Below are positions 10,336 to 28,242 of a DNA stretch of 64,000 nucleotides, in pieces. This DNA is from a virus. Lineage: Duplodnaviria > Heunggongvirae > Uroviricota > Caudoviricetes. The stretch lies in IMG/VR virus record IMGVR_UViG_2939127364_000001. One strand, written 5' to 3'. Position numbers and translations under genes: made by a program. The notes under the pieces are model-generated. The model had not been told where the DNA came from. It saw only the letters and a list, made by a program, of their open reading frames with translations, and did not search any database. How positions within the stretch are numbered: the stretch's first letter is position 1; every line of letters starts with the position of its first letter.

Positions 10336-10469
10336 AACCAGCAAACAGTAGATGAAAACTACAGATATACCTGTAGCCACTGCCATCAGATAGAGTTTGA
10401 TCATGTGTTTTCCTATGTGGCTATTGTGTGTAGATGATAAGTAGGTGCTTATATATTTTCAAGGTATAA

Positions 10470-10487
10470 AGGCGTCCATTCGGACGC
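10470..10487 (-). terminator. Hairpin downstream of recA (weak terminator)
   Basis: GGCGTCC-ATTC-GGACGCC hairpin 8 nt after the recA stop; T-run on minus strand is weak. Confidence 0.35.
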
Positions 10488-10494
10488 CTGAAAA

Positions 10495-13109: not shown

Positions 13110-14098
13110 TACCTTTCGAATGGAAGAACAAACACTTCAAGGTCTTCAAGGAACGAACGGAAATTCAGCTCGTAGCACAGTTGCTCGAATGCTTTCACGT
13201 CACGATTGCCTTTGATTGTTTCGATTTCGGTAGGCGGAAACTTCGTCTCAATCAGGTTCATTAGCGTGATGTTTCTCTTGAACGCTTCGAGCATTCGACA
13301 GCCTGTTTTCTCGTTGAAGGCATTCTTCGCTAGTTTGTTGAAGGCGGTCTTATGGCGTCCTTTGTCAACCACGATTGAGCCGTCGTTGATGCCGCGTACC
13401 ATCGTTGCGACACTTCCCCATTCATGCAGCAGCTCTTTCGCACCGCCAGCACCAATGCCACCAACACCGCTAATGTTGTCCGATTTATCGCCTTGTAATG
13501 CTTTTGCTTCCAAAAATGCGCGAGGAGTAGCGAATCCTGTCAGCTCCGCAAATTGCTCAAAATTAACCTGCTTGTTTTTGGCGTCTTCGCGCAGGCTTAC
13601 CCAGCTTACGTTTTCGCGAACTAACTGAAGCCAGTCGCTATCGCCTGTTAACAGATAGATGTGTTCAACGGTTGGCTGCGGTGCCATGCGGGATACCAGC
13701 AGCCCGGCCAGATCATCCGCTTCTGCATCTTTTGCAATGAGTTGGGTAACTCCAAGCGCGGTCATCATTTTGAGGATGTATGGCTTCTGGATAGCAAAGC
13801 CTTCCTTCATCTTTTTCATATCAGGATCGTCGTCGCGATTTGCTTTGTAGTCCGGGTAAAAGTCGCGACGCTTGTCACTAAATCCATCCCAAAGAATCAT
13901 AGGTCGGGCATGGAGGATGGAGGCATAACGACGGACGTTCTTAACAAAGCCGAAAGCAGCCTGTACTTCCATTTCGCCGTTGTGCAATTTGTCAGATTGT
14001 TGGTGGTAATAACCCAGGCTATTGCCATCTACGAAGAGATAATTCACCGGTACATTCCTTCCAAAAAGTAAGGCGTCCGTAGACGCCTTACTGGTCAC
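13103..14098 (-). CDS. 5'-3' exonuclease / flap endonuclease (FEN family)
   Basis: 331 aa; acidic metal-binding clusters and a helix-hairpin-helix-like GIGAGGAKEL segment characteristic of T5 D15 / Pol I 5'-exo family. Confidence 0.65.
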   Translation of the reverse strand: MTSKASTDALLFGRNVPVNYLFVDGNSLGYYHQQSDKLHNGEMEVQAAFGFVKNVRRYASILHARPMILWDGFSDKRRDFYPDYKANRDDDPDMKKMKEGFAIQKPYILKMMTALGVTQLIAKDAEADDLAGLLVSRMAPQPTVEHIYLLTGDSDWLQLVRENVSWVSLREDAKNKQVNFEQFAELTGFATPRAFLEAKALQGDKSDNISGVGGIGAGGAKELLHEWGSVATMVRGINDGSIVVDKGRHKTAFNKLAKNAFNEKTGCRMLEAFKRNITLMNLIETKFPPTEIETIKGNRDVKAFEQLCYELNFRSFLEDLEVFVLPFERYC

Positions 14099-14107
14099 GT
14101 AATGGGA

Positions 14108-15136
14108 TTACAGAGAGTCCAGCTCTCTCAGTAGGTCATCCAGACCTTCATCTTCCGTCGCAGATGCGGTTGCTACAGATGTCGCTGCGACTGCTTCAGA
14201 CTCTTTGACTGATACGGCAACGGCAGCGGAACTTGCCTCTGGTTTAAATTCAGTTTCAACGGCACGGAGGATTTCTTCATCAACCAGACTGGTTGGTTCA
14301 GAAGCCGGTGTGTGCGCGGTTGCTACAGCCGTCGCTCCTTCTGTATGACCAGTGACAGAGCCAAATCCAGGTAGTGCCGCAGCCGATGTTTTCGCGGTTG
14401 AGGAAATTGCTGGTGCAGATGCTGCGGCAGTTGGTGCAGCGATGCCAATCAGACGACCCATAGTGCGAACTGTCGACAGAAGACGAGTTTCATCAGCCTG
14501 ATTTGCGTATGCGATCAGATCATGCTGGGTGTTCCAGAATTTATCTTCGATATCGCCTTTGTAGACTTTACGCTTAGGCGAGACGTCATATTTGGTATCG
14601 CGACCAGAGCCAGTACGTTTAATCAGGAATGCGTAGCCTTCCTCTTTGCTCAGTGGATTGCCGATATCATCAGCGATGTCTTCGGTGATTGCTTTGCAGA
14701 TATCATCGAATACAGTAGACGGCAGCTCGATTAACTGGCATTTCTCAGCATCTGCGAAATCCTCACGAGCAGAAAGAATGCCGTTGACCAGGTAGCGAGG
14801 AGTGGCACGCATTTGACCGATGCGTTCTTCCATTGCTTTGTTACCCTTGTGACGAGCGCGACCTTCCATCACCATTTCGCATAGCTGACAAGCGCGACCG
14901 TGAGTATGTTGCTCACAAATATAAGCGTTGGTTGCTTCTTTACCGTCCTCGTTCTGATACTTAACGTAGTGCATACCGAAAGTCTGGAAGAACTTACCGT
15001 TTGGGTCGTCCTTATTCGGGAAGATACGGATATAGTTGACGCCATCTTTTAAGCGAGTCAGATCAACGTTGTTACCACGTTTGGCGGCAATGTCTTCACG
15101 AGTTTTGTTAAGCAAATCAAGTAATGTCTTAGACAT
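14108..15136 (-). CDS. Putative ssDNA-binding protein (zinc knuckle, Ala/Ser/Thr-rich linker, acidic C-terminal tail)
   Basis: CEQHTHGRACQLCE zinc-ligand cluster, low-complexity linker, C-terminus TEDEGLDDLLRELDSL; position in replication module. Confidence 0.4.
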   Translation of the reverse strand: MSKTLLDLLNKTREDIAAKRGNNVDLTRLKDGVNYIRIFPNKDDPNGKFFQTFGMHYVKYQNEDGKEATNAYICEQHTHGRACQLCEMVMEGRARHKGNKAMEERIGQMRATPRYLVNGILSAREDFADAEKCQLIELPSTVFDDICKAITEDIADDIGNPLSKEEGYAFLIKRTGSGRDTKYDVSPKRKVYKGDIEDKFWNTQHDLIAYANQADETRLLSTVRTMGRLIGIAAPTAAASAPAISSTAKTSAAALPGFGSVTGHTEGATAVATAHTPASEPTSLVDEEILRAVETEFKPEASSAAVAVSVKESEAVAATSVATASATEDEGLDDLLRELDSL

Positions 15137-15253
15137 GTGTTTCTCCTTGTTGTGATTTGGCCGATGGCGCTATGCGCGTTGGGCTTTCGTTCATTCGTGG
15201 CTCTTTCGAGCTGTTCAATGATAGATCAGTACTTATTTATTATCTATCAAAAA

Positions 15254-15685
15254 TCAACGGGGAGTAATAAAGCGTTCGGAGCCTAATCGCTCCAATTCAA
15301 CAATGGCCATCTTCGACGCCTGAACGATCATGTCTCGGCGATGCGAAAAGGCGGCGACAGCATGTTTGTATATGTCTGCGATGTGCCGTGCTTCATCCAA
15401 CTTCTGCCGTTTAGACAGATACTGTGGGTTTGTTTTAACCTTAGCGTCCAGTACAGACTCGTTGAACTTAATGCCGTTCATACTCAAGTTCTTACGCTCT
15501 GTGTCGTATAGCTTTGCTTCAACAGCTTCAAGGTTAAGTTTTGCCTCTGCGACATCTCGATCTGCCTGCGCTAGTTTTGACCCATACTCCATTAAAAGCC
15601 GTGGCTGTTTACGCCATACTTCCTCAAGGTTGTCGCGGTCGAACTCCAGATCGGCCATGATTTTAGAAAAAATATCAGTGTTCAC
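15254..15685 (-). CDS. Hypothetical coiled-coil protein (possible recombination mediator)
   Basis: 143 aa, predicted helical; located next to SSB-like and RecA genes. Confidence 0.3.
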   Translation of the reverse strand: MNTDIFSKIMADLEFDRDNLEEVWRKQPRLLMEYGSKLAQADRDVAEAKLNLEAVEAKLYDTERKNLSMNGIKFNESVLDAKVKTNPQYLSKRQKLDEARHIADIYKHAVAAFSHRRDMIVQASKMAIVELERLGSERFITPR

Positions 15686-15892
15686 TCTAATAGGTTCCTA
15701 CTTATAAAATCTGTATCAATTATATCAAACAGAGAACGGGTTTATGGCGTCATGTCAACTTTGTTCAGGGGAAGATATTGAGATCACCGAAGATAATTAG
15801 TTGTCTTATTTTGGTAAGCTGTGCTGACCATCTTTAGGTCACATACATGAGATGGATGGGGTGTGGCATGAGCGGATGAAATTCAGTCGCCG

Positions 15893-15921
15893 TTGACAGA
15901 TGTCAACACTGTGAATAGAAT
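15893..15921 (+). promoter_or_regulatory. Sigma70-like promoter with palindromic -35 (TTGACAGATGTCAA) driving the HicA-like gene
   Basis: TTGACA (15893-15898), 17-nt spacer, TAGAAT (15916-15921), then GGAGG RBS and ATG at 15939. Confidence 0.6.
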
Positions 15922-15938
15922 ACTATTATCGGAGGCGA

Positions 15939-16163
15939 ATGAAGCAACATCCGAATAAGCATATTCAAGCAGCCATTGACTATGCATTAAGTAAAGGCTG
16001 GATCTGGGTAGCAGCTGGTGGTGCTGCACATTGTTTTTGCAGACTGCGATGCGGTAATCCAGAAGGTGAACACAAAACTCACCAAATGAGCGTATGGTCG
16101 ACTCCGGGTAATCCCGAAAACCAAGCCAAACAGATCAAACGAATGGTTGATCGTTGTAAATGA
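15939..16163 (+). CDS. HicA-like toxin candidate
   Basis: 74 aa; ALSKGWIWVAAGGAAHCF resembles the HicA core (G-W..V...G..H.F) as recalled; basic small protein followed by putative antitoxin. Confidence 0.35.
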   Translation: MKQHPNKHIQAAIDYALSKGWIWVAAGGAAHCFCRLRCGNPEGEHKTHQMSVWSTPGNPENQAKQIKRMVDRCK

Positions 16164-16223
16164 TTTCAAGGCGGCATTAGCCGCCTTTTGCAGAAACTGT
16201 CCAACTATCTTCAAAGGAAAACT

Positions 16224-16787
16224 ATGGCGCTTTATAACTTCACTCTGACGCTCTCAGGCGTATCGTATGAGACGGAAGGACTGGAAGACGCGCTGTACCA
16301 AAACGGCTGTGACGATGCGCTAATTTGCGCATATGGAAACTCCGTCTATGTAGAATTTGACCGCGAAGCACAATCACTTGATGCAGCTATCGCATCTGCG
16401 GTCGACAATATTGAATCAGCCGGTATCGGTGCAATTGTTGAATCCGTCGACTCGGCTCTTGTGGGCTTAAGCGATATCGCGGAACTGACAGACCTGTCTC
16501 GCCAGGCTGTGGCGTTGCTCAAAGACGGTAAGCGCGGAAGCGGCGACTTCCCTTGCCCTGTACAACGCATAAAAGGCCAGTCGCCTCTGTGGGATTGGGC
16601 TGATGTGGCTGAATGGCTCATGGATAACGGACGACTTAAAGAGGGCGATCAGATTGTCCAAAATGCCCGAACTTTGAGTAAATGGAATCTGGCGCTTCGA
16701 AACAGCGTCTCGAAAGATTTCAACGAAATAGAGCAAATTGCTGAGAAACTGATTAAACGCCGCAAGGATATTGCGAAATGCGCATAA
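16224..16787 (+). CDS. HicB-like antitoxin candidate with HTH domain
   Basis: Start at ATG 16224 after RBS AAAGGAAAA; N-terminus MALYNFTLTLSG resembles HicB N-terminus as recalled; LSDIAELTDLSRQAVALLKDGKRG HTH-like segment. Confidence 0.35.
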   Translation: MALYNFTLTLSGVSYETEGLEDALYQNGCDDALICAYGNSVYVEFDREAQSLDAAIASAVDNIESAGIGAIVESVDSALVGLSDIAELTDLSRQAVALLKDGKRGSGDFPCPVQRIKGQSPLWDWADVAEWLMDNGRLKEGDQIVQNARTLSKWNLALRNSVSKDFNEIEQIAEKLIKRRKDIAKCA

Positions 16788-16790
16788 TGA

Positions 16791-16820
16791 AACCCGCCAA
16801 CTGGCGGGTTTTCTTTATTA
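16791..16820. terminator. Bidirectional hairpin terminator between HicB-like gene and dnaE
   Basis: AACCCGCC-AACT-GGCGGGTT followed by TTCTTTATT on plus strand. Confidence 0.6.
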
Positions 16821-19800
16821 CTTATTTATCGTCTCCGCGATATCAGCCAGAATGGCCTCCAGTCGCTCTCCTTCTTCCGGTCGGAAGTACAGGATATTCG
16901 GGTTAAATCCGTAGAAGACGGTTGCATCAAGCTCTGGGAAGTACTCCTTACGACCAATCAGATCTGATGGTTTACTCTTATTGTTAAATAGTGCGGTTGA
17001 ACGACTACCACACGTCAAAATGTAGGTTGGTCGTACAAGATTAATTTCTTCCCGCATAAAGTCTGTGAACTGGCCTATCTCGTCTTTGGTATAGTCTTTC
17101 TCTTTGTCCTTAACCTTCTTACAAACACCCGTGACATAAAGATCGCCCATGCGCAGATCTCCAACTGTCAGTAGTTTTGCCTTAAAGTCGTCGTATCCGT
17201 TCTCCATGAAGTAGCCGGTACGAGCGTCATTGCCGTTCGCATTGTCCAGAATGATCATGATTTTGGGTTTAATACCAATAGTCGGGCGTATCAACTCCTC
17301 ACCCAAGCCCATTTCAGCCGCCATACGTGTCATGAGTACGTTGATTTCGGCAGAACGCTTAGGATTCATTTCGAACGGACGTGATGCTTTAACAGCGTCA
17401 ATGATGAGATTGCCCATCAGCTCAGCCTGGTCGCGCAGTCGTTCAGGATCAGTTGCTGGCAGACTGCCTGGCTCAATTGACGCAAAAGCCCCTACTTTAT
17501 GAAGCGACTCGCGTACACGACTGTTACATGCACGCTTCTCGACCGCTTCATCGAATTGTGCCACTGACTCGAATTTGCCACCAACTTTCTCACGCGCACG
17601 CATAATTGCCTGACAACCATTTTCAGAACAGCCTTTCACAGCAGAGAATGGCGCATACAGTGCCTGACTGCCGTCTTCGAGTGTGCGGATCTCAATTCGG
17701 TTAGATGACACATTAACGTCTGGTGGCAATACGCGAATGCCATAGGTCAGCGCATCCTTCACCAGCCCCTGATGCTTATCCTCGCCCAGAATGGTGAGCG
17801 CAGCTGCGAAGAACTCAGCAGGGTAGTGCGTCTTTAGCCACATAGACTGATAACTGATTAAAGAATAAGCAACGGAGTGTGATTTATTGAAGGCATATCC
17901 ACCGAACTTCTCAAAGGCGTCCCATATTTCTTGGGCTTTTTCCTTACTGAGACCTTCTTGTTCAGAGACGATCTCCACGTAGTCTATGCCGTCACTAATA
18001 GCCTCGCTGTAGCTTCTACGCTTACCGTCTGAGCAATCCAGTTTTGCGTGTTTGTGAACCTCTACAGTACCTCCATTTTTGAGTGACAGTGTCACCCAGC
18101 CTGCTTGTGCTCGTTCTACAAAATCGCTGCCGATCGCTTTCATCTTATCCATGTTCTTTTTACCGATAGCGGAACGCAGAGCGTCTGCTTCGGCCATAGA
18201 GAACCCGGCAAGTACTCGGGAACTTTGCATGATTTGTTCCTGATAGAGCAAAACACCATTAGTCTCCCGGGTGACTTCCTCAAGACGCGGATGAATTGAA
18301 TGTGGAGCCATGAAGCCTTTGGCCACGGAGACATAGTCGTCCAACATGCCGGATTGGATCGGGCCAGGTCGGAAGAGCGCGGTCGTGGCGACAACGGTTT
18401 TAAAGCTCATTGGCTCAATGCCACCGCCCAGATCTTTAAGCAGCTTGCGCATGGGGCCGGACTCCAGCTGGAATACGCCCTGCGTGTACCCTGCAGCGAA
18501 CCCATCCAGAACCTTACGATCGTCCAGTGGAATAGCATCGAGATTGATGTCTTCCCCGGTACTCTCTTTGATGTAGCGTTTCGCGCTATCCAGCAGATCG
18601 AGCGTTGCCAGACCGAGAACGTCCAGCTTAATCAGCCCCATCGCCTCGCAGTAACGTTTATCGAACGCAATACAGCGAGCGTTGCCACGCAGCTCGACGG
18701 GCGTGCGCTCTACCAGTGGAACGCCAGCGACGATCATCCCCGCAGCGTGACGGCCAAAACCACGCATCAGGCTTTGTAGCTTACACGCCGCTTTGAACGC
18801 TTCCGGGTTTTTCGTGGCGTATTTGTCCAGGCTGGCCAGTTGCTCGCGCAGCTCTTCCAGAGACAGGCTATCGTCTTCCAGATTCTTGAACTCTTTGGAT
18901 ACCGCCATATCCGCAGCGTCGACACCGTAAATACGCGCAGTGTCTCGCAGCGCAGAAGCGGCGCCCAGATAGGTGAAGTTTGGAATACCGGCAACGTAAT
19001 CTTCGCCATAGCGTTCATTCAGATACTCGATCACCTCATGACGACGTGCCTGGCTGAAGTCCAGATCCGCATCCGGTAAGTCAAGACGTTCAGGGTTGAT
19101 GAAACGCTCAAACAGAAGACCGTGACGGATAGGATCGACGTTGGTTATGCCTATGCACCACGCCACCAGAGAACCGGCAGAGGAACCACGACCTGGCCCG
19201 ACAGGAATGCCAGTTTCACGGCTGTGATTCATCAGGTCGCGCACCATCAGGAAGTAACCACAGAAGCCCAGGCGAGTCAGCGTGTCCATTTCGTACTTAA
19301 GTCGCTCAACATAAACCCTGTTCTCAGAAGCCGGTGGTGTGTATCCAAACTCTTTTGTGGTAAGACGTTTACGCAGCCCTGCAACAGCCAGTTTCATCAG
19401 CGTTGCAGGTTCGTCGTCTGCCATCTTGGGCAGTGCTGGTGGCAATTCATGCCAGCGCCATGTACAGGCTTCGATAATGGAGTCCTGCGTTGTTGAGGCC
19501 ATTGCAGCTGTTACCGGCACATCCATGCGAACGGAGAAGGCTTTAAGCGCCTCAAGGAGATGGCGGCGACCATTGACGGCGTTATCTCGCTGGTGGGGTA
19601 TACGCAGACGATGCGGCTGGTCGATTTTTATGTTGTTCGTAACCATGTGCGCAATGTCTTTAATGTCTGCATCGTCGGTCGATTCGTAATAAGCGGGATA
19701 GAACGCTACTGGCTCTATTTTCAGTGCGCTGGCTACTTTCATCGCTCGGACGTTAATCTGGTCGTAGAATGGGGTAGGGTGCGGATAAACCACGCTATAG

Positions 19801-20324
19801 AAGTTGTCTTTCCCGCCCGCTGTAATCAGTGAGCTTATGATTTTTGCAAAATCGTTGCGTTGGAACACGCTACCGATGTCGGAAGTGAGCAGGATGATGT
19901 TGCCTTTGGCATATGTAGAAACCAACTGTTCGAGCGAGAGACGCGGTACAAAGTAGAACTGTTCTCGTGTGTTGGCCACCGTCATTAGTTCGCAGATGTC
20001 GCGATATCCTTGCTCATTTTTAATTAGAGCGGTAAACGAGTAGTTACGTCCCCGCTCTAATGATTCCATACATCTCATAGATTCTTTAGCAAGTTTAGCC
20101 CGGTGCTCGTATGTGGGATCATCAACGATATTTAGTTTCACACCACAAATAACCGCCATGTCGTCACCAGCGGCACGTTGTAGTGGAATAACACTCGCAA
20201 TATTCATGCTATCTGCTGAAATTACAGCGGTGTAGCCAGCTTCTCTGGCAATCTTCACCGCGTTTTCTGCTTTTAGAGCCGACTCCCCAAGTGAGAAGTC
20301 AGTTCGAACCATCAGTGCTTTCAT
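16818..20324 (-). CDS. dnaE: DNA polymerase III alpha-type (DnaE family) replicative polymerase
   Basis: 1168 aa; N-terminal PHP-like region; [48 protein letters not shown] matches the conserved DnaE palm motif. Confidence 0.85.
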   Translation of the reverse strand: [1168 protein letters not shown]

Positions 20325-20508
20325 GTGTTTTTACCTTTATGGTTTTTTTGATTTTGTCATTGGGGAAGCCTACGAACTTCCCATACATCGAAATCGCAAC
20401 TTCTTTTGCTGATTGGTGACAATCGGGCTTGTCTGGACATACCAGACAAGCCTTACCAGTTTCAGAAGCAGCGATAAGAGAGCCGAAACATCCTTTACGC
20501 ACGATCAA
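20299..20508 (-). CDS. Small Cys-rich hypothetical protein
   Basis: 69 aa ORF with CLVCPDKPDCH cluster, coupled between AAA ATPase and dnaE. Confidence 0.3.
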   Translation of the reverse strand: MIVRKGCFGSLIAASETGKACLVCPDKPDCHQSAKEVAISMYGKFVGFPNDKIKKTIKVKTHESTDGSN

Positions 20509-21740
20509 CCAAATATTTTTTGAACAACTTCACGAGCCGCTTGTGCAGAAACTGAAGGGAGTTTGTTAATGAAAGAACGCTCAATACCTGTCACAAAGTC
20601 GCCTCGCATCATTCCAATCTTGGCCGACAACAAAAGTTCACGAGGGCCAATTGGCTGACTGATAAGGTGTTCTTCGTATCCATCGCGAACGATACCGGCA
20701 AACTTAACCATCTTTTCTGCGTATTCATCCACGATACCGGCATTTATCAACATGTTGATCTCTGCCTCTTTGCTCATGTATTTCACATTCGAAACGATGC
20801 CAAAACGCGAAAAGTTCGCGGCGTTCTGGATGTTTGTACCCTGGTACAAGCCGGTTTCATCACCAGATCCGTTCGTGTTGCCAGTGCCAATGAAAGCAAA
20901 CCGTTCATGCGGAGTAATGCGACGCCATTCTGGAGTCGCCTCTTTGATGACCAACGCTTCACCTTCCAGCACTGGCTGATACACGCCAAGAATCTGTGGA
21001 AACGCAAAGTCGTATTCATCCGCGAGGTAAACCCAGCCATGCTTCATTGCGAGCGCAAGCAAGCCAGGCTCGAAATACGTAGAGCCATCACGCGCCAGAA
21101 TTTGCCCCGTAACATGTGCCTCTTCCATTGATGCTGTATGTTGGGCACGGATCAACGGACGATTGAGCAAAGCACATAGTTGTGTAGGCAATGACGATTT
21201 GCCTGTTCCTGCATGACCCCACAAATAGCCAGGTATGCCAAGTTCAAGCATCATGAAAATGTCTTTGATCAGTTCGAAGTCGCCATATACGTAGCCCTTC
21301 TTCACTTCTGGAACGAACTCTGGAAACGGCGTATTGACGTTGACGCTAACCATGAGCGGCGTCCCACGTTTTGTTCCGAGTTCTTTCACCGTTACATTTA
21401 GCAGTTCGTGAGCTGCGACCAGATCTGTCTTGTACTCAACTGTGCCTGTGTAGCCTGGGCTACTGGTCACGCCAGATGATTTGGCCATTTCGCTTTTTTG
21501 CTCGGCACGTTTAGCTTGAATTGCATCAAGTGCCTTTTTCGATAGCGTTGGCTCATCTGGAAACTGTGTTGTGTACATTTTCAGTACGGTGTCAGGATCG
21601 GCATCTTTTACTGACTCAGGAATGCCCTCGCAATTACCATTGGCTACATGGGACTTAAAATAGTGAAATGATTTTCCGCACCACTTGCAAACAAGGTAAT
21701 CAGAAGGATTTTTTTCATTTTGCAGTGCAGTAGTAGTCAT
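20505..21740 (-). CDS. AAA+ ATPase (MoxR/CobS-like)
   Basis: 411 aa; Walker A LWGHAGTGKSSL; N-terminal CxxC...C cluster. Confidence 0.65.
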   Translation of the reverse strand: MTTTALQNEKNPSDYLVCKWCGKSFHYFKSHVANGNCEGIPESVKDADPDTVLKMYTTQFPDEPTLSKKALDAIQAKRAEQKSEMAKSSGVTSSPGYTGTVEYKTDLVAAHELLNVTVKELGTKRGTPLMVSVNVNTPFPEFVPEVKKGYVYGDFELIKDIFMMLELGIPGYLWGHAGTGKSSLPTQLCALLNRPLIRAQHTASMEEAHVTGQILARDGSTYFEPGLLALAMKHGWVYLADEYDFAFPQILGVYQPVLEGEALVIKEATPEWRRITPHERFAFIGTGNTNGSGDETGLYQGTNIQNAANFSRFGIVSNVKYMSKEAEINMLINAGIVDEYAEKMVKFAGIVRDGYEEHLISQPIGPRELLLSAKIGMMRGDFVTGIERSFINKLPSVSAQAAREVVQKIFG

Positions 21741-21835
21741 GCGTTTTTCCTTTGTTTTCTAATGAGCGTTCAACTTCTTATATAAATATATCATTATCTA
21801 TCGTAAGTGGTTACTTATCATTAAGGCTGTTTTGT

Positions 21836-23944
21836 TCACTTTAAAATGATACGAGATAGTTCAGTAACTACAGATGAACCAAGACTATCAACGCTCGTTA
21901 CCAGGGCATGATTTGAGTAAAATCTCTCCGGTGCGTCAGTCATGATGCCAATTGCCATCAAATCAATGTCAGTCTGCGTTTCAATTTGCTTCGCAACCGA
22001 ACGCAAATGAGCGTCAAAACCTCTCCCAACAGCCCACGGCTCGCCATCGCTCAGAACAAGCATGATCTTCCTGTCCTCCATGCGACCGGAAAATAACGAT
22101 GCAAGGCTGGCTATGCTTTCACCATCCACGTTATTAAGAAGTGGGAATGTGTAGCCTACGCACCCCATACGTGAGCGAACTTCGCGAGAATTTACCTTTT
22201 CATTCCAATTTTTGATGATAGGTAGCATTAAAGATTCAAAGCGAGAGAACTCATACTTGACAGCCTTAAGTTCTCCTGCCGCCATATGACTACCAAATGT
22301 AGTGAAGCCGGTGATAATGTTGGGAACATTTATTCGATCAAGGGCATCGGCGATGGTATATGCACTTGCAAGAGCCAATTGTATCGTTATACCCCTCATT
22401 GAACCTGATAAATCAATCACTTGTTGAACACAGGCGTTAACGGCTTTAGATTCTTCTTTTTTACGAAACACGCGATCATCATTCATTGCTAATCTGTAGA
22501 TACTAGAACCATGAATGCGCCCCCGACGCTGGCCCGGTATAAACTGAACTCTGTTTCTGCTTGCTATTGCTCGCTCCAGGTCTTTTGCCAGCGTCGACGA
22601 AACACCTGACGAAAGATGCTTTTCAATATATTTGTCGAAGAGCTGGTTGCCTTCAGAAACGATGCGATAGCGGCTGATTGGACATCCTCCTAAATCAATA
22701 TCGGAGAATGTTTTAATAAGCCGTTTGATATGGGCTTCTGCCTGATCAATCGAGCCGATGAAGTCGTATGAGCGATTGTATGGCCTGTATTCGCTTTTCG
22801 AGCTTTCTGTTAACTCGCTTTTAATCGTTTCGGATAGAGCATCTTCTGTCATGCCTCCGACTTCATCTTCTATGCTATCCAGCTCCTCTAAAGCCTCTTC
22901 CAGACTCATTTTTGACGGAGTTGGAATATCTGAAGAGCCGTCTTCTGTCGTTTTTCTTTTTTCGTGGTCAGCGGTTAATGATTCTGACGCCGCGTTATCA
23001 GAAGCATCAGAATCTGATACCTCTTTATCATTTTCTGTATCATCGAATATTGTTTCTGATGATTCAGAATTATCTGAATCATCGCTGTCGTTATTATCAT
23101 GTTTGTGCTTACTGTGTGATTCTGATTTGATAGATTTGTGATTATCTAACGCTGAGGGTGTCTCATGATCTTCGTTGTCTTCATTGTTTTCTCCAGAGGC
23201 ATCCGTCTGGTCAGCGTCTGAAGGATCGGAAGTTTTTCCCGGAGCTGACTCCTTACCTTTGCTTTCACTTTCAGTGTCTTTGAGGATCTTAGCTATGGTC
23301 GCAGCCACCTTTACACAATCCTCGGTGCAAGACATGTTACGCACGGCCACATCGATACCATGTTCTTTTAATAATGAAATTGGTTTCTCAATGACAGGCC
23401 AATATTCATCCATGAAATCTACGAACGGTGCTTGGCCATCCCAGGCTCTTACAACCGGACAGAGAAAGAAGTTTAGAAAAAGCGCGCGCTGATCTTTGCC
23501 ACAATAAGCAATAGCCTCTGAAGCCTTTGGTTTAAAGACTTTTTCGATTATAAGGCGCTGAGTTGCCATCAGATTACGTCTTGTTCCGTTAAAGATCTGA
23601 CCCATTTTTCGCTCGATGAACACGTCTTCTAAGGCATTCCATAGCGACCAGGAAGGAACGCGTCCTTTTTCTCTCATTTTGTTGGACACACGAATATCGG
23701 TAAACAAAATGTGAGCAACCTCATGATCGAGAAATCCGCGCACAGCATTCATCAATGCCGGTGTTGCGTTATCCGGGATTGATGGGATGTTTACGAGAAT
23801 TGGCTCTCCATCATCGTTATAGCGTACATAAGCGTCGTCCCCTCGTTCTGCAACAGGGATGTTTTTACCTGAAAGGAGAGCGACTACTCGTTTTACACTG
23901 TCACGGAAGTCCTGAACCTCTTTGATGGAACGTTTTTTAGACAT
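21836..23944 (-). CDS. von Willebrand factor A domain protein (CobT-like) with long acidic linker
   Basis: 702 aa; C-terminal MIDAS motif VIDLSGSM; central D/E/S-rich low-complexity region. Confidence 0.6.
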   Translation of the reverse strand: MSKKRSIKEVQDFRDSVKRVVALLSGKNIPVAERGDDAYVRYNDDGEPILVNIPSIPDNATPALMNAVRGFLDHEVAHILFTDIRVSNKMREKGRVPSWSLWNALEDVFIERKMGQIFNGTRRNLMATQRLIIEKVFKPKASEAIAYCGKDQRALFLNFFLCPVVRAWDGQAPFVDFMDEYWPVIEKPISLLKEHGIDVAVRNMSCTEDCVKVAATIAKILKDTESESKGKESAPGKTSDPSDADQTDASGENNEDNEDHETPSALDNHKSIKSESHSKHKHDNNDSDDSDNSESSETIFDDTENDKEVSDSDASDNAASESLTADHEKRKTTEDGSSDIPTPSKMSLEEALEELDSIEDEVGGMTEDALSETIKSELTESSKSEYRPYNRSYDFIGSIDQAEAHIKRLIKTFSDIDLGGCPISRYRIVSEGNQLFDKYIEKHLSSGVSSTLAKDLERAIASRNRVQFIPGQRRGRIHGSSIYRLAMNDDRVFRKKEESKAVNACVQQVIDLSGSMRGITIQLALASAYTIADALDRINVPNIITGFTTFGSHMAAGELKAVKYEFSRFESLMLPIIKNWNEKVNSREVRSRMGCVGYTFPLLNNVDGESIASLASLFSGRMEDRKIMLVLSDGEPWAVGRGFDAHLRSVAKQIETQTDIDLMAIGIMTDAPERFYSNHALVTSVDSLGSSVVTELSRIILK

Positions 23945-24042
23945 GGCTAATCCTTTGTTATGAAAACAAATTATTTACTAGTGTGTTTAATGTAGCACTG
24001 CGCGAACAGGGAACTAAGCCATTCGCGCAGGGAGAAGAGGGG

Positions 24043-24255
24043 TTAACAGATTCTGACGGCTAAAGACCCGGAGCCGGTATTGAGAAGCGTGAAGCGTTTG
24101 TTGTTAAGTTCGAATATAAATCCAGTTGTGTCATTCACACCAACCTGAATCTGCTCATTCGGTAGATCGGTGAGGATGTCAGCTACACACTCATCAGCTA
24201 ATTTCTGTACGTGTCCGATCTCAAGAGCGATTAGGCTGGAAATAGTGGTGTTCAT
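24043..24255 (-). CDS. Hypothetical protein
   Basis: 70 aa ORF divergent from HTH regulator gene. Confidence 0.3.
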   Translation of the reverse strand: MNTTISSLIALEIGHVQKLADECVADILTDLPNEQIQVGVNDTTGFIFELNNKRFTLLNTGSGSLAVRIC

Positions 24256-24432
24256 TCAATCAATCCATTCTAACTTATACTATGGTAAGGAATACTACTA
24301 AAATTTGTATCAATACTGAATACATTCATATTATATGCAAGTTGATTTTCTTACCTGTTTTGGGTTAATTTTTCTCCGTGCAATGGCCTTTAACCGGTCT
24401 TTTAAGTGCCTATCGAAAAAAATGATAATAGC

Positions 24433-24475
24433 TTTACAACCCTAACCTTTGATGTAATATCGGTAAGCACTTACC
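24433..24475 (+). promoter_or_regulatory. Promoter (TTTACA-16-TAATAT) with downstream 14-bp palindromic operator GGTAAGCACTTACC
   Basis: -35 at 24433-24438, -10 at 24455-24460, palindrome at 24462-24475, ATG at 24507. Confidence 0.5.
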
Positions 24476-24506
24476 AGAGAGAATTGAACGCGCAAAGGTT
24501 GTAACC

Positions 24507-24893
24507 ATGTCTGATAACAAGATTGAATTTATAGAAAGTCGCTACGCTGCTTTTATCGCAGGGTTGATTGAATCCTCACCTATGAGCCAGGCCCAGATAG
24601 CCAAAACAATTGGGTATAAAAACGCCAACAACCTTTCTTTAATTAAAAGCGGCAAAATTCCTTTGCCTATCGATAAGGTTCGTCCGCTGGCGCTGGCACT
24701 GGGTATTGAGCCAAGTCGTCTTATGATGATGGTGCTGGAAGAACGCCAACCCGAACTCGCAGCATTTTTATACAAAGAAGGCACTGCTCCTCTTAACGAG
24801 GACGAAAAACAGGTTCTTGCTGCATATAACGAGCGATTCGGTAAAGAGAAAGGCGCATCACAAAAGGTTGTTGAGGCCATAAAGTCTCTATGA
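24507..24893 (+). CDS. HTH (XRE/Cro-CI-like) transcriptional regulator
   Basis: 128 aa; helix-turn-helix segment SQAQIAKTIGYKNANNLSLIKSG. Confidence 0.6.
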   Translation: MSDNKIEFIESRYAAFIAGLIESSPMSQAQIAKTIGYKNANNLSLIKSGKIPLPIDKVRPLALALGIEPSRLMMMVLEERQPELAAFLYKEGTAPLNEDEKQVLAAYNERFGKEKGASQKVVEAIKSL

Positions 24894-25991
24894 AAAATTT
24901 ACACGAATAAGCTCTGTTGATAGACGATCTCCCTTGAATTTGTGGTCAATTTCGTCTAAATCCGGTTGCTCTACGATTGATGCGATGTACGTCGAGAAAC
25001 TTTCTAAGGCGTCTCGCATCTCGTCCATATAATCGTGCCGGTCGTAGACCCGATCTATCCCCTCAAGACTGTGGTTCATGATTTTGCGTGATACCTCCTG
25101 GCTTATGCCTAATGCTGGGAAGTAACTACGCGCAGTACGGCGCAAATCTCGGGGTGTAAATGGCTCAAGCTCCATCAGTTCTGGTCGTTCCAGAATACGA
25201 CGTAATGCCTGGGCTATTGCCACTTTAGACATAGGAAGGTCTTTCCCGATTTTTTTATTCGAAGGCACGAGCCACTGGCTGTCTTTACCATATTCGAACA
25301 ACTCTTCAATACAAGTGCGCATTAATGAGCTTAAAGGCAGAGAATGCTCACGGGCAGATTTGTTCCTCTTGCCTTGATTCCAAACCCCACGCTTAAGATT
25401 GAACTCACTTTTTTTAGCCCGCAGTACTTCGTCAGGTCGTCTTGCGGATACAAGACATAGCCTGGCCGCCCATTTTGTACCAGCACACACATTGAAGTAG
25501 TCCCATATATTCCAGAACACCCATACCTCTGCGTCGGTCAGCTTCCGCTCGCGAGGTGTGGGCTTTGCGCCACCGGCAACTTTGTTAAGTGACATATCGT
25601 TTAACGGTGACACGTCTATCATCCCCTGGAAGGCGCACCAGCTAAGGAACTGCTTCATCAGAGAGAAAACGCGGCGGCCCATAACAATTTTGCCATCCAG
25701 TATTAGTGGGTTGACCAGTTGGTTCACCATGAACCTATTAATGTCACTTACTTTTACATCGGCAATGTGCGGCAAAACATGTATCAAAATACAATGAACA
25801 GCGATCTCTGGCCGACGTCTGGTTATCAGCAGAGATAAGCGAGTGAATAACATGAATGCGTCCGAGAATCTCATGTCATTGCTGACCTGGGAGATCATAA
25901 CGGCCTGCATTTGAGATGCTCTTTCGAGATACTCTATCGCCTCTTTTGAGGTGTTCTCCGCAGCGCGTGCTCTGTCAAAGCTATTTTTCAT
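24888..25991 (-). CDS. Tyrosine recombinase (integrase/resolvase family)
   Basis: 367 aa; C-terminal catalytic-like region PRDLRRTARSYF...KIMNHS...RVYDRHDY. Confidence 0.6.
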   Translation of the reverse strand: MKNSFDRARAAENTSKEAIEYLERASQMQAVMISQVSNDMRFSDAFMLFTRLSLLITRRRPEIAVHCILIHVLPHIADVKVSDINRFMVNQLVNPLILDGKIVMGRRVFSLMKQFLSWCAFQGMIDVSPLNDMSLNKVAGGAKPTPRERKLTDAEVWVFWNIWDYFNVCAGTKWAARLCLVSARRPDEVLRAKKSEFNLKRGVWNQGKRNKSAREHSLPLSSLMRTCIEELFEYGKDSQWLVPSNKKIGKDLPMSKVAIAQALRRILERPELMELEPFTPRDLRRTARSYFPALGISQEVSRKIMNHSLEGIDRVYDRHDYMDEMRDALESFSTYIASIVEQPDLDEIDHKFKGDRLSTELIRVNFS

Positions 25992-26088
25992 ATGACAATC
26001 ACCGAGTTACGCCGATGCACTGTATAAGTAAACAGTATATTAGGCATAGATTCTTATAGGATCAAGAGTAAAAGTAACTCATTTTCAC

Positions 26089-26123
26089 TAATGATTCCAT
26101 ACATAGTAGGTATGGAATCATTA
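26089..26123. other. loxP-like site: perfect 14-bp inverted repeats around a 7-bp spacer (TAATGATTCCATAC-ATAGTAG-GTATGGAATCATTA)
   Basis: Perfect palindrome ~100 bp upstream of the tyrosine recombinase start; architecture matches tyrosine-recombinase core sites. Confidence 0.5.
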
Positions 26124-26201
26124 TGACGTTGTTTTTTGAATTTTAAGGGAAACGGGAGTGAGTTTGGTGGGAATAAAAACGGCTCCTGTGAGCCGTTAAA
26201 A

Positions 26202-26447
26202 TCAGAGGGTGCTGACGTATGCAGCCAGTTCTGTGTATCCGCCAATCGGTTGGCCATCGATCAGCACTTGGGGGATAGTCTCTACCGGTTTACCAACAAT
26301 TTCACTTAGTTTTTCCTTGTCGATACCGGCAGTGGTGATGTCGATGTACTCATAATCACCGTAGCCATGTCCCTTTAGTTGCTTCGCCAGCTCGACCGCA
26401 CGTTTGCAGTATGAGCAGTTATCTCGTCCGTAGATAGTGATCGTCAT
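26202..26447 (-). CDS. Glutaredoxin (GrxA/NrdH-like)
   Basis: 81 aa; CSYC active site; GKPVETIPQVLIDGQPIGGYTEL closely resembles E. coli glutaredoxin 1. Confidence 0.8.
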   Translation of the reverse strand: MTITIYGRDNCSYCKRAVELAKQLKGHGYGDYEYIDITTAGIDKEKLSEIVGKPVETIPQVLIDGQPIGGYTELAAYVSTL

Positions 26448-26794
26448 TGCTTTGCCTCATGCCACTTTTGCTTCAGGAGATAGCCTTCCAGGGGCCAGAT
26501 TTGATCGATAGCATCTTTTCGAGCGTACTCGCGACCAACATCAAAATTGAAGATTTCTGGTCTTACGCACGCAGATTTTCCCGTTACGGTATATCCATTT
26601 TTGAGAACCATAACGCAGAACGTTAAGAGTTTTAACGACTCATGACCTTTGTCGATATCTGTTTTTGAATTGTAAACAGAGATGAAGTTATCCCCGTGGC
26701 TGGCATCATATGCAGTGAAATAATGTTCACTTTGAATGAGTTGTTCAATGTGTTCAGGGGTGACTTTTAGTGGTGTGTTCTCTTTGCTGGTCAT
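26444..26794 (-). CDS. Hypothetical protein
   Basis: 116 aa ORF coupled to glutaredoxin gene. Confidence 0.4.
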   Translation of the reverse strand: MTSKENTPLKVTPEHIEQLIQSEHYFTAYDASHGDNFISVYNSKTDIDKGHESLKLLTFCVMVLKNGYTVTGKSACVRPEIFNFDVGREYARKDAIDQIWPLEGYLLKQKWHEAKQ

Positions 26795-26837
26795 TATTTC
26801 TTCCTACAAAGTTCGTAGACTTGACTCTTTCAGTTGC

Positions 26838-26866
26838 AAAAAAGGGGCCGAAGCCCCTTTGAATTT
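26838..26866. terminator. Bidirectional rho-independent terminator
   Basis: GGGGCCGAAGCCCC hairpin flanked by A-run upstream and T-run downstream. Confidence 0.7.
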
Positions 26867-26935
26867 TGCGCTGAAAAAAAGTGTTGCTAGGATGTTAGCA
26901 AGCTATGGTTAAGAACGTCTGCCGTAATTGTCTAT

Positions 26936-27013
26936 CACAGCGTTGAGCGGTCTGGTTTATGTTAGCGGAGTCTTAATCTGGGTGATTAAAAGGCCAAACC
27001 GCTCAACGCTGTG
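26936..27013. repeat. Hairpin element E0 (16-bp perfect arms CACAGCGTTGAGCGGT / ACCGCTCAACGCTGTG, 46-nt loop) abutting tRNA-Ser 3' end
   Basis: Arms at 26936-26951 and 26998-27013. Confidence 0.6.
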
Positions 27014-27015
27014 TC

Positions 27016-27102
27016 TGGCGGAGAGTAATGGAATCGAACCATCATCGTTTGCACAATGGGACGGATTTCAAGACCGCTTGAGCACCATGCTCCCTACTCT
27101 CC
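27016..27102 (-). tRNA. tRNA-Ser (anticodon UGA), type II with long variable arm
   Basis: Minus strand GGAGAGTAGGGAGCATGGTGCTCAAGCGGTCTTGAAATCCGT...GGTTCGATTCCATTACTCTCCGCCA; anticodon loop CTTGAAA; one mismatch in anticodon stem. Confidence 0.6.
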
Positions 27103-27202
27103 AGCTATTGTGATGGTCGGTGCTGAACTCCGACACAGGGTTGTAGCAAGCCCCGCAAAGCGCGCACTACTGTAGTTGCGGCACATCAGCCTGTGCATTC
27201 AT

Positions 27203-27281
27203 CACAACGGTAAGATCACTACCTTTCGACCAGTCATTGTGCACATGAACGACGATTAACCGTAATGATCTTATCGTTGTG
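27203..27281. repeat. Hairpin element E1 (15-bp arms CACAACGGTAAGATC / GATCTTATCGTTGTG, one mismatch)
   Basis: Arms at 27203-27217 and 27267-27281. Confidence 0.55.
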
Positions 27282-27332
27282 TTGTGAAGCCAGATGCTTA
27301 TCTTCTGGTTGCTTCAAAGAGCTGCACTTCCT

Positions 27333-27421
27333 CACAACGGTAAGAGCACTGGTCTGACTCTATCGATTTACGGGCTTGTGGGTCAGTATCGCCGATTCGC
27401 CCAATGCTCTTACCTGTTGTG
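27333..27421. repeat. Hairpin element E2 (arms CACAACGGTAAGAGC / GCTCTTACCTGTTGTG) abutting tRNA-Thr 3' end
   Basis: Arms at 27333-27347 and 27406-27421; paralogous to E1. Confidence 0.55.
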
Positions 27422-27422
27422 T

Positions 27423-27498
27423 TGGTGCCGGTTAACGGGATCGAACCGCTGACATCCTGCTTACAAGGCAGGCGCTCTACCAACTGAGCTAAACCGGC
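27423..27498 (-). tRNA. tRNA-Thr (anticodon UGU)
   Basis: Minus strand GCCGGTTTAGCTCAGTTGGTAGAGCGCCTGCCTTGTAAGCAGGATGTCAGCGGTTCGATCCCGTTAACCGGCACCA; canonical cloverleaf, encoded CCA. Confidence 0.8.
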
Positions 27499-27502
27499 AA
27501 TT

Positions 27503-27589
27503 TGGTGGGGAGTGATGGAGTCGAACCACCCGAGTCGCAATGACAGTAGATTTACAGTCTACCCCGCTGCCCCTACGGACTAACTCCCC
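27503..27589 (-). tRNA. tRNA-Tyr (anticodon GUA), type II
   Basis: Minus strand GGGGAGTTAGTCC...GGGTAGACTGTAAATCTACTG...GGTTCGACTCCATCACTCCCCACCA; anticodon loop CTGTAAA. Confidence 0.65.
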
Positions 27590-27594
27590 TAAAT

Positions 27595-27669
27595 TGGCGA
27601 TGGTGGGTGGATTCGAACCACCGACCAGTTGGTTAACAGCCAACTGCTCTACCGCTGAGCTACACCATC
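27595..27669 (-). tRNA. tRNA-Asn (anticodon GUU)
   Basis: Minus strand GATGGTGTAGCTCAGCGGTAGAGCAGTTGGCTGTTAACCAACTGGTCGGTGGTTCGAATCCACCCACCATCGCCA. Confidence 0.75.
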
Positions 27670-27935
27670 AATTCAGCACTGCCAGTATTTATTACTCAAC
27701 AGTGCCAATCGCGACGGTTTAGTTTCTGCCAGGAAACGCACCGCTACTTGCACTTTTCGTTAGTGCCAGACGCTTTCGACTTCGCTCAATAGTAGAAGGC
27801 AAAATCTTTAAGTAGATGATGTTTCTGAGGACAGCACCTACTTTGTAATTTATACAATGTGATGTATGGAATCATTTGTTGTGAAAACAGGCACCAATGG
27901 CAACAGTGGTTAAACCTACACAACAATCCTGTCTT

Positions 27936-28057
27936 CACAACGTTGAGGCCACTACTCCGATTGAATGTTTGCCCAACATGTTACATATCAACGCTCGCCG
28001 GTATCTCTGTGAATAGAACCTTAGAATTGATAAAAATGTAATGGCCTCAACGTTGTG
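27936..28057. repeat. Hairpin element E3 (16-bp perfect arms CACAACGTTGAGGCCA / TGGCCTCAACGTTGTG, ~90-nt loop)
   Basis: Arms at 27936-27951 and 28042-28057. Confidence 0.55.
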
Positions 28058-28218
28058 TGCTGGCTAACCATACCAGCCGGGCTACGTCGCCGCTTTTTAA
28101 CCCAGTATAAACGACATAATTGAACAAAATGACGTAACAGGACGGGCGGTCAGTGGCTAAGAATCCGGGAGTCATATGGAGTTGAAAATATACCAACCGC
28201 CCATTCTGTTACTTCATC

Positions 28219-28242
28219 GGAGGGAACATGAATGTTCCCTCC
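28219..28242. promoter_or_regulatory. Perfect 24-bp palindrome GGAGGGAACATGAATGTTCCCTCC in gene-poor AT-rich region
   Basis: 11-bp arms with 2-bp centre; no convincing ORF in 27670-28447. Confidence 0.4.

Follow-up and report, generated by a model that had tools for sequence, protein, structure and literature searches.

Palindromic site and its association with the recombinase

The locus examined here raises the question of what a tyrosine recombinase gene and an adjacent loxP-like palindrome do for a phage-plasmid. Both are found in a stretch of 64,000 nucleotides (hereafter the window) from the Caudoviricetes virus record IMGVR_UViG_2939127364_000001, belonging to a phage-plasmid of the SSU5/pHCM2/pMT1 type and 98% identical to Escherichia phage Cyrano, which is the SSU5-like plasmid prophage pLF82 of Escherichia coli LF82 (108,379 bp when complete). 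The initial annotation had proposed that the recombinase gene (int; CYRAN_44 in Cyrano) and the palindrome form a plasmid multimer-resolution or integration system, with dispersed copies of the palindrome arm as accessory sites. The present comparison points to a module that probably serves the resolution of plasmid dimers in the style of Cre/loxP, with the palindrome as the putative cognate site of the recombinase.

A first line of evidence is the palindrome itself. It is perfect and consists of 14-bp inverted arms around an asymmetric 7-bp spacer (TAATGATTCCATAC-ATAGTAG-GTATGGAATCATTA; Table 1), exactly as the initial annotation had described it, and its left end lies 97 bp from the int start codon, in line with the distance of about 100 bp given there. 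The chance expectation was 0.13 perfect inverted repeats per first-order Markov-chain randomisation of the window, counting arms of at least 11 bp and spacers of 3 – 12 bp. Complete Cyrano and complete pHCM2 contain one palindrome each. The arm 13-mer GTATGGAATCATT occurs in five exact copies in the window and also in five copies in complete Cyrano, compared with 0.017 expected from base composition.

A second line of evidence is the association of the palindrome with the recombinase gene across lineages. One palindrome with a 7-bp spacer was found 42 – 110 bp upstream of every int homologue examined (44 – 100% protein identity; 13 lineages and 80 viral contigs from IMG/VR), with a single palindrome per locus in 80/80 IMG/VR loci. 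The lineages bearing the site comprise pHCM2, pMT1, Klebsiella, Cronobacter, Enterobacter, E. coli S56, Kluyvera, Buttiauxella, and three Chimaeribacter, as well as the K. michiganensis type, Xenorhabdus, Providencia, Pantoea, Nissabacter, Photorhabdus, Rahnella, and Erwinia. In Nissabacter and Chimaeribacter, the palindrome lies only 42 – 46 bp from the int start codon. Within the SSU5 clade (82 – 100% protein identity), the 12-bp arms ATGATTCCATAC/GTATGGAATCAT were invariant in all 80 IMG/VR contigs and unchanged in pHCM2, pMT1, Klebsiella, Cronobacter, Enterobacter, Kluyvera, and Buttiauxella, and the intergenic DNA around them was only about 75% identical. The spacer is 7 bp long throughout and free in sequence, with at least 12 variants over all lineages. 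Read along the strand that has int pointing rightward (the reverse complement of the plus strand of the window), the spacers of the 80 IMG/VR loci of the SSU5 clade were CTACTAT (35 loci), CTATTAA (24), TTGGTAG (11), TTGTAAG (seven), and three others found once each. Seven spacer variants thus occur among elements with 82 – 100% identical recombinases, one pair being exact reverse complements.

Thirdly, the arms (12 – 15 bp over all lineages) shift symmetrically with the divergence of the recombinase, from the ATGATTCCATAC to the GTGACTCCAGAC type. Between clades, the series runs from ATGATTCCATAC/GTATGGAATCAT over GTGATTCCATAC/GTATGGAATCAC to (A/G)TGACTCCAGAC/GTCTGGAGTCA(T/C). The arms of Nissabacter and Chimaeribacter (57 – 60% int identity) are the same as those of the SSU5 clade. 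The sites are TGTGATTCCATAC-TATATAA-GTATGGAATCACA in the K. michiganensis type (59%), ATTGTGACTCCAGAC-TTAATAG-GTCTGGAGTCACAAT in Pantoea (50%), and ATGACTCCAGAC-TACATAG-GTCTGGAGTCAT in Providencia (44%). Rahnella, Erwinia, and Xenorhabdus (45 – 50%) carry arms of the GACTCCAGAC type, and Photorhabdus (48%) has an imperfect intermediate site. In addition, int of Chimaeribacter, Pantoea, Rahnella (on a 722-kb replicon), and Erwinia has metabolic, H-NS or chemotaxis genes as neighbours and no phage genes in its vicinity, and no homologue of the helix-turn-helix (HTH) gene that adjoins int in all phage-plasmid contexts was found near int in these four genera. As the palindrome is retained there, int and the site represent the minimal conserved unit. 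Taken together, co-occurrence, a free spacer of fixed length and symmetric co-variation of the arms with the protein strongly support the interpretation of the palindrome as a tyrosine-recombinase core site, and the adjacent recombinase appears to be its cognate enzyme.

Two further observations concern the site. The spacer reads CTATTAA in some elements and TTAATAG in otherwise collinear ones, with both flanks unchanged, which resembles the inversion of a hairpin loop by template switching. This flipped spacer was rejected as direct proof of recombinase action, since the flanks keep their orientation and template switching in a hairpin suffices without a recombinase; it is used here only as a sign that the polarity of the site is unconstrained. 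Furthermore, a contig of 2.2 kb from a Planctomycetota metagenome-assembled genome (VGYV01000988.1, positions 316 – 347) contains the exact ATGATTCCATAC/GTATGGAATCAT arms around an 8-bp spacer, in GC-rich DNA and without a recombinase gene. About 0.01 such matches are expected by chance in the whole collection, and the match may reflect chance or contamination.

The recombinase protein

The assignment of the int product to the tyrosine recombinases in the initial annotation was confirmed by a match to Pfam Phage_integrase (PF00589; E value 2.9e-10). The catalytic residues R185, K211, R281, R284, H307, and Y316 are conserved among 36 homologues, down to 25% identity, and R185, R284, and Y316 are invariant in 36/36 sequences. 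Position 281 shows the only family-specific change, being an arginine in this recombinase family (the first histidine of HxxR having changed) and a histidine in the P4-type outgroup. The AlphaFold2 model (predicted local distance difference test score 85.4; predicted template modelling score 0.76) displays a two-domain clamp fold with a core-binding and a catalytic domain. In a Foldseek search against the PDB, the best match was lambda Int (1z1b; E value 5.5e-7), and Tn1549 Int, XerH, XerA, and IntI were retrieved too. Matches to Cre (E values 0.03 – 0.1) ranked below lambda Int, Tn1549 Int, and Xer, and a phmmer search of the PDB with the recombinase gave no match at an E value of 0.1. The one NCBIfam match scored 33.9 bits, far short of the cutoff of 434.

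The nearest outgroup in sequence consists of P4-type integrases (26 – 34% identity) that possess the arm-binding domain DUF4102 (PF13356). This domain was found in the outgroup and not in the recombinase family, the N-terminus of which is short and helical. A recombinase without an arm-binding domain is of the simple kind, expected to need a core site only. No other site-specific recombinase is annotated in Cyrano. A protein active as a simple tyrosine recombinase, with core-binding and catalytic domains only, would be the best explanation of these features.

Proposed roles in multimer resolution or integration

In E. coli, the site was present in 251 of 5,426 complete genomes, always plasmid-borne and once per plasmid. 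The chromosomal attB core for which the initial annotation had suggested a search did not appear, as none of the 5,426 genomes contained a chromosomal site at E values up to 10. When 185,579 species were scanned for the pattern, each represented by one genome, the full site was retrieved only beside int homologues, apart from the unrelated Planctomycetota match. The protein itself was encoded on plasmid-like replicons only, among the cases for which the replicon type could be determined, which do not include the Chimaeribacter and Pantoea contigs.

Hence, of the two roles put forward in the initial annotation, resolution is favoured, as indicated by one site per replicon, the restriction to plasmids, the variable and even flipped spacer, and a protein without an arm-binding domain. 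Integration is disfavoured, since none of the E. coli chromosomes has the site. Indeed, a free or flipped spacer would do no harm to a system that acts on dimers of a one-site replicon, but it would impair a directional reaction with a partner site. If the palindrome were the core of an attP, by which the phage-plasmid would integrate into the chromosome and alternate between a plasmid and an integrated state, its overlap would need to match attB, yet the spacer is not conserved. The annotation of the gene as an integrase and its P4-type relatives would fit such a life cycle, as would three Chimaeribacter genomes in which the conserved block of int and site gives way to unrelated DNA about 20 bp past the palindrome, much like the boundary of an integrated island. 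However, a second copy of the site was seen in no locus, the E. coli search retrieved no chromosomal site, and the species scan yielded only sites beside int homologues and the one unrelated match, so that this alternation is quite improbable.

For the favoured role, dimer resolution, the following course of events can be proposed. One recombinase monomer would bind each 12 – 14-bp arm, and strands would be exchanged across the asymmetric 7-bp spacer. With one site per replicon, a substrate for recombination arises only upon dimerisation. Homologous recombination between copies of the plasmid prophage would yield a dimer with two directly repeated sites, recombination between which would return monomers and thereby keep the low-copy phage-plasmid segregating. 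By analogy with the role of Cre/loxP for P1, circularisation after infection is possibly a task of the module alongside resolution.

Several points weigh against this assignment. The entire case rests on comparative sequence analysis, the observations being the features of the locus, their co-occurrence, co-variation and distribution. Expression repressed by an SOS control (see below) would be unusual for a housekeeping function such as resolution, and the Cyrano genes for which expression in lysogens has been reported do not include int (PMC9928086). Also, no clear set of adjacent accessory sites that could impose selectivity for resolution was found at the locus, a pure resolution role leaves conserved single arms unexplained, and the restriction to plasmids derives from replicons other than the Chimaeribacter and Pantoea contigs.

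Predicted SOS control of the recombinase gene

A near-consensus LexA box (CACTGTATAAGTAAACAGTA) is located just downstream of, and overlapping with, the likely int promoter. The pattern CTGT-N8-ACAG was found in 78/80 SSU5-like relatives among the viral contigs, at a fixed distance of 53 – 55 bp from the arm, and phage-plasmids of the K. michiganensis type have a LexA box on the int promoter too. No such box was found in the Nissabacter, Providencia, Pantoea, Rahnella, Erwinia, and Chimaeribacter versions of the locus. The candidate sigma-70 promoter has the same hexamers and spacing in pHCM2. It is weak, with a score of 8/12 that is below the threshold of a consensus promoter scan, which returned no promoter near the site. 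From the match of the box to the consensus, we infer an operator repressing int; in the SSU5 clade, LexA would thus hold int transcription down, and a rise would be expected during the SOS response. Ciprofloxacin is known to induce Cyrano (PMC9928086).

Complete Cyrano contains three matches to CTGT-N8-ACAG, two of which are close to the LexA consensus, namely the int box and one (ATACTGTATGTGTATACAGTAT) just upstream of the gene for an S24 LexA-like peptidase (CYRAN_98). As these are the only two near-consensus boxes in Cyrano, int and CYRAN_98 may form a small SOS regulon of the element.

Single half-sites

Beyond the palindrome, the window contains three single copies of the arm. The initial annotation had reported two half-sites, at 27862 – 27878 and 28874 – 28890; both are real, with the 17-mers (GATGTATGGAATCATTT) one base lower, at 27861 – 27877 and 28873 – 28889, and a further copy, the fifth of the arm, had been missed on the minus strand inside dnaE. 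Allowing at most one mismatch, the three single copies were found at orthologous positions in pHCM2, Klebsiella, E. coli S56, Nissabacter, and the viral contigs, lost copies being uncounted in this procedure and three loci spanning the dnaE region having no copy there. No arm copies occur elsewhere in complete pHCM2 or complete Cyrano, all of them being confined to 9 – 13 kb centred on the palindrome. In all loci, each single arm is oriented like the nearer arm of the palindrome, resulting in a mirror orientation. A single arm in the K. michiganensis type carries the variant of that lineage (GTATGGAATCAC). No single arms were found within 10 kb of the palindrome in the more distant Xenorhabdus, Providencia, Pantoea, Rahnella, and Erwinia.

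Two of the single copies stand out from variable flanking sequence. In the dnaE copy, which is also present in the Nissabacter element (60% int identity), none of the 12 motif columns varied in 31 distinct contexts, compared with 34 of the 48 flanking columns. The DnaE loop encoded there is hypervariable among distant homologues, and the residues next to the motif differ even between close relatives; the invariance of the copy in such a loop indicates a constraint on DNA or RNA and not on protein. An 8-bp inverted repeat with a 19-nucleotide loop (TAGAGCGG...CCGCTCTA; minus strand, 20019 – 20058) was noticed directly 3' of this half-site. Similarly, in the copy upstream of the tRNA cluster, none of the 12 motif columns and 46 of the 48 flanking columns varied in 28 distinct contexts. 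The third copy, at the start of a small membrane-protein gene with a product beginning MIPY, is conserved in pHCM2, Klebsiella, E. coli S56, pMT1, and Nissabacter. In the K. michiganensis type, the peptide keeps IPY and the DNA has two changes, so that a coding constraint contributes to the conservation of this copy. Lastly, a degenerate copy inside int (GTTTGGAATCAAG), which reads GTATGGAATCAA in most of the SSU5-like lineages examined outside E. coli, was without variation in its 12 motif columns in 16 distinct contexts; conservation of W-N-Q in the protein accounts for part of this.

The initial annotation had also considered that the motif might merely belong to conserved small open reading frames beginning MIPY. 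This is the case for the copy at the MIPY gene and not for the dnaE copy (CMESL, in another frame and on the other strand) or the tRNA-upstream copy, where the reading frame possibly started by the motif encodes 29 amino acids in the window and six in pHCM2. With a true MIPY start at one copy only, small MIPY reading frames do not explain the motif. A wider explanation, in which the motif would be an RNA feature (a hairpin, a terminator or pairing of AUGAUUCCAUAC with GUAUGGAAUCAU in transcripts) or a by-product of such reading frames, draws on the ATG within the motif, on the copy that forms the true start of a conserved small gene, and on the complementarity, in the mRNA sense, of the dnaE copy to the other two single arms. 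However, the 17 elements read and the 80 viral contigs displayed no one-sided arm changes of the G-U type, except for the imperfect Photorhabdus site, and the sequence itself is conserved instead of pairing alone. Moreover, the hairpin is AT-rich and without an adjacent U-tract, a canonical terminator lies 55 bp away, Rfam retrieved only tRNAs in 19000 – 31000, and the MIPY reading frames at the palindrome and at the tRNA-upstream copy are not conserved. An RNA or coding origin of the motif is therefore hardly credible.

The proposal that the extra copies act as classical accessory sites was not borne out, as the single arms lie 1.7, 2.8, and 6.0 kb from the palindrome and neither the 80 viral contigs nor the other loci read showed a rearrangement involving them. 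Other roles were considered and rejected. A shufflon or invertase was suggested by the dnaE and MIPY-start arms (20059 and 28876), which are inverted and share seven adjacent bases (ATGAGAT), but the two sites do not share the corresponding bases in pHCM2 and Klebsiella; the 80 viral contigs had no inversions or deletions between arms, and the bases on the spacer side are not common to the copies. The single arms are no scars of module junctions either, since the window and pHCM2 align continuously across the tRNA-upstream and MIPY-start copies. Degenerate second arms were not recognised, the sequence 7 bp upstream of the single sites giving no convincing arm match.

Conservation at the DNA level indicates some function for the single arms, and the best guess is that recombinase monomers would dock on them in addition to the palindrome, giving the three or four conserved copies a regulatory or architectural role. 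An alternative reading takes the whole arrangement as an operator system, in which a recombinase-fold or HTH protein would bind the palindrome and the single arms to regulate int, the tRNA cluster, the operon of the MIPY gene, and dnaE, recombination being secondary or absent. This is suggested by single arms that are conserved at the DNA level, at gene starts as well as inside genes, by a palindrome that immediately precedes the int promoter and, in Nissabacter and Chimaeribacter, lies at the short distance from the start codon mentioned above, and by a weak Foldseek match to SroF, a repressor of phage phi3T (E value 0.016). Yet, the invariant Y316 and the catalytic arginines would be unexpected in a pure repressor, a free asymmetric spacer of fixed length is the hallmark of a strand-exchange region, and the distant clades keep the palindrome without single arms. 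The product of the HTH gene, annotated as a putative repressor, was rejected as an unlikely binder of the palindrome, given that the gene is missing in six non-phage contexts that retain the palindrome; it may still bind the single arms. An operator system in place of recombination is thus unlikely; an operator role and recombination together, as a dual role, are possible.

Under the docking-site interpretation, it may tentatively be ventured that the recombinase is bifunctional. It would resolve dimers at the palindrome, and SOS-induced monomers would dock on the single arms in the dnaE loop, at the MIPY start, upstream of the tRNA genes and in int, exerting a polar control, dif/KOPS-like or roadblock-like, on the early replication region of SSU5-type phage-plasmids. 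No comparable arrangement is known for a tyrosine recombinase.

Cargo hotspot

Homology between relatives stops at, or about 25 bp past, the arm that faces away from int. In the window, the slot beyond this arm is empty, whereas the first 700 bp past the arm fall into about 25 sequence classes over 80 loci (79 viral contigs and the window). For example, the slot of Cyrano is occupied by an 800-bp insert with CYRAN_43 (10125 – 10990 of the Cyrano locus extract), the expression of which in lysogens is reported as 723 times the local background (PMC9928086). In pMT1, the operon for the F1 capsule (caf1R-caf1M-caf1A-caf1) starts at the arm edge and replaces the stretch from the glutaredoxin gene (grx) to the tRNA genes (pMT1 locus extract, 5234 onward). 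The Klebsiella slot harbours a colicin-immunity gene and YafO, and that of Xenorhabdus toxin-antitoxin genes and a colicin DNase. A (T)nGAAWTCTGA-like element, 10 – 25 bp past the arm, recurs across cargo classes and in Nissabacter, Chimaeribacter, and Pantoea; it is not present in pMT1. This A/T-tract flank (TTTTTTGAATTTTAAGG in the window) is a candidate accessory or bending element.

The gene order brings to mind an integron-like platform, on which an SOS-induced recombinase would insert circular cargo at the palindrome. Indeed, int is divergent from the site, variable cargo lies beyond, the int promoter bears a LexA box, and the caf1 operon begins right at the arm edge. Against this, the cargo-side arm is intact in every element, and the junction is mostly located about 25 bp outside the arm and not in the spacer. 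No second full or hybrid site and no related repeats flank the cargo, the genes of which occur in both orientations, and the far boundary is irregular, lying inside the 3' end of grx in Cyrano. Selection that keeps an essential site beside an insertion-tolerant gap explains the sharp edge equally well. Cargo capture by the recombinase is accordingly very improbable; the intact arm, the junctions outside the spacer and the lack of a second site indicate an insertion-tolerant gap bounded by an essential site.

Comparison with known systems

Full-text literature searches on the arm sequences and on the recombinases of SSU5, pHCM2, and pMT1 gave no description of the site or of a function of the recombinase. 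The module is thus uncharacterised and of a well-known type, namely a simple tyrosine recombinase with a lox-like plasmid site, to which putative SOS control and mirror-oriented single arms are unusual additions. It resembles Cre/loxP of P1, Dre/rox, and Vika/vox in that a plasmid prophage carries one simple tyrosine recombinase with a single nearby site and no arm-type sites. As in loxP, two inverted arms of about 13 bp enclose an asymmetric spacer, which is 8 bp long in loxP and 7 bp here, and the presumed role is plasmid multimer resolution in both cases. However, the recombinase falls outside the Cre sequence family, its nearest relatives being P4-type integrases, with DUF4102 lost. Also, the site is located directly upstream of the promoter of the recombinase gene, this promoter bears a LexA box in SSU5-like and K. 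michiganensis-type phage-plasmids, and clades with the arm GTATGGAATCA(T/C) have conserved single arms kilobases away. To our knowledge, neither a LexA box on the promoter nor distant single arms are known for Cre.

By arrangement, which is the basis of comparison here, the module is also similar to ResD/rfsF of F, Rsd/crs of Salmonella virulence plasmids, and TnpI/IRS of Tn4430 and Tn5401, in all of which a recombinase gene lies beside its own site on a plasmid and takes part in the resolution of multimers or cointegrates. In the TnpI systems, the binding motif is repeated, and the additional repeats have accessory and regulatory functions. These TnpI repeats are found within about 100 bp of the core, whereas the extra arms of the present locus are 1.7 – 6 kb away, mirror-oriented and, in two cases, in coding sequence. 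Lambda- and P4-type integrases provide the best structural matches (lambda Int) and the nearest outgroup in sequence, but the window protein has neither an N-terminal arm-binding domain nor a chromosomal attB, and the overlap is variable. The IntI/attI systems share a LexA box on the int promoter and a site between int and variable genes, and IntI is among the fold matches; they differ in that the present locus has no attC-bounded cassettes, junctions outside the spacer and cargo in both orientations. With SroF of phi3T, the window protein has the tyrosine-recombinase fold in common, as reflected in the weak Foldseek match. Recombinase-fold repressors, such as SroF and YopR of SPbeta, have lost catalytic residues and recognise several sites scattered over the phage genome. 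In contrast, the catalytic tyrosine and arginines are strictly conserved in the window protein, and its principal site has the geometry of a recombination core.

Phage-plasmids of the SSU5/pHCM2/pMT1 type are common in E. coli, Klebsiella, Salmonella Typhi, and Yersinia pestis, and their maintenance is largely unstudied. The putative cognate site offers a testable model of how low-copy prophage plasmids escape the cost of dimers. Two arm families with many spacers constitute a natural series of candidate recombinase/site pairs, which are possible tools for genome engineering beside Cre/lox. Further, a cargo hotspot is bounded on one side by the site; it accommodates highly expressed morons and, in pMT1 of Y. 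pestis, the F1 capsule operon. Finally, mirror-oriented single arms and SOS control suggest a regulatory layer that has not been linked to a tyrosine recombinase before.

Genomic setting and additional features

The window is 73 – 78% identical to pHCM2 of Salmonella Typhi, pMT1 of Y. pestis, and many IncFIB-typed plasmids of about 110 kb from Klebsiella, Enterobacter, and Cronobacter. The genes around int represent the early and replication arm of the element, encompassing dnaE, genes for a CobS-like AAA ATPase (annotated as cobalamin synthetase) and a CobT-like von Willebrand factor A protein, the HTH gene, the glutaredoxin gene, a Gp49-family gene, four tRNA genes, and a DNA ligase gene. 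The positions of the features are listed in Table 1.

Table 1. Features of the recombinase locus and related sequences (positions in the window unless stated otherwise)
Feature	Position	Strand	Remarks
Half-site in dnaE	20059-20071	-	Codons Cys-Met-Glu-Ser-Leu; orientation of left arm
HTH gene ('putative repressor', CYRAN_45)	24507-24893	+	Convergent with int, overlapping its 3' end; weak Pfam HTH_19 match
Tyrosine recombinase gene int ('Integrase', CYRAN_44)	24888-25991	-	367 amino acids; start codon at 25991
Degenerate arm copy in int	25373-25385	-	Codons V-W-N-Q
LexA (SOS) box	26018-26037		Near-consensus
Candidate sigma-70 int promoter	26037-26065	-	-35 TTGATC (26060-26065), 17-bp spacer, -10 TAATAT (26037-26042)
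Putative core recombination site	26089-26123		Arms 26089-26102 and 26110-26123; spacer 26103-26109
Family-conserved 12-bp arms	26091-26102 and 26110-26121		ATGATTCCATAC and GTATGGAATCAT
Cargo slot, empty in window	26124-26201		Between site and glutaredoxin terminator (26178-26197, minus strand)
Conserved A/T-tract flank	26132-26148	+	Cargo side of site
Long hairpins among tRNA genes	26936-27013, 27200-27284, 27339-27414, 27878-27941, 27936-28057		
Half-site upstream of tRNA cluster	27864-27876	+	About 195 bp upstream (transcription sense) of tRNA-Asn/Tyr/Thr/Ser; orientation of right arm
MIPY gene	28735-28887	-	Conserved; 50-amino acid membrane protein (MIPYISLAF...)
Half-site at MIPY gene	28876-28888	+	Overlaps start codon; orientation of right arm
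Second LexA box, before CYRAN_98	Cyrano record 89277-89292; pHCM2 13515-13530		

In the Xenorhabdus element (14481 – 16802), the AAA_5 (CobS-like) gene beside the CobT-like gene has a match to the LAGLIDADG_3 domain, pointing to the insertion of an intein or a homing endonuclease in this lineage. The window contains two more perfect palindromes with a 7-bp spacer (1076 – 1110 and 36265 – 36295); one, AAAAAGGCTCACTA-TCCACTG-TAGTGAGCCTTTTT, resembles a bidirectional terminator, and the second reads ATGCATTGGCGC-AATGTAC-GCGCCAATGCAT. Lastly, a family of long hairpins, with stems starting with CACAACG or CACAGCG, arms of 14 – 23 nucleotides and loops of 36 – 82 nucleotides, is interspersed with the four tRNA genes, and the Rfam scan of 19000 – 31000 returned no family for them. 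One of these hairpins (27878 – 27941) begins two nucleotides past the tRNA-upstream half-site, and its arm (GTTGTGAAA.CAGG) is kept in relatives.

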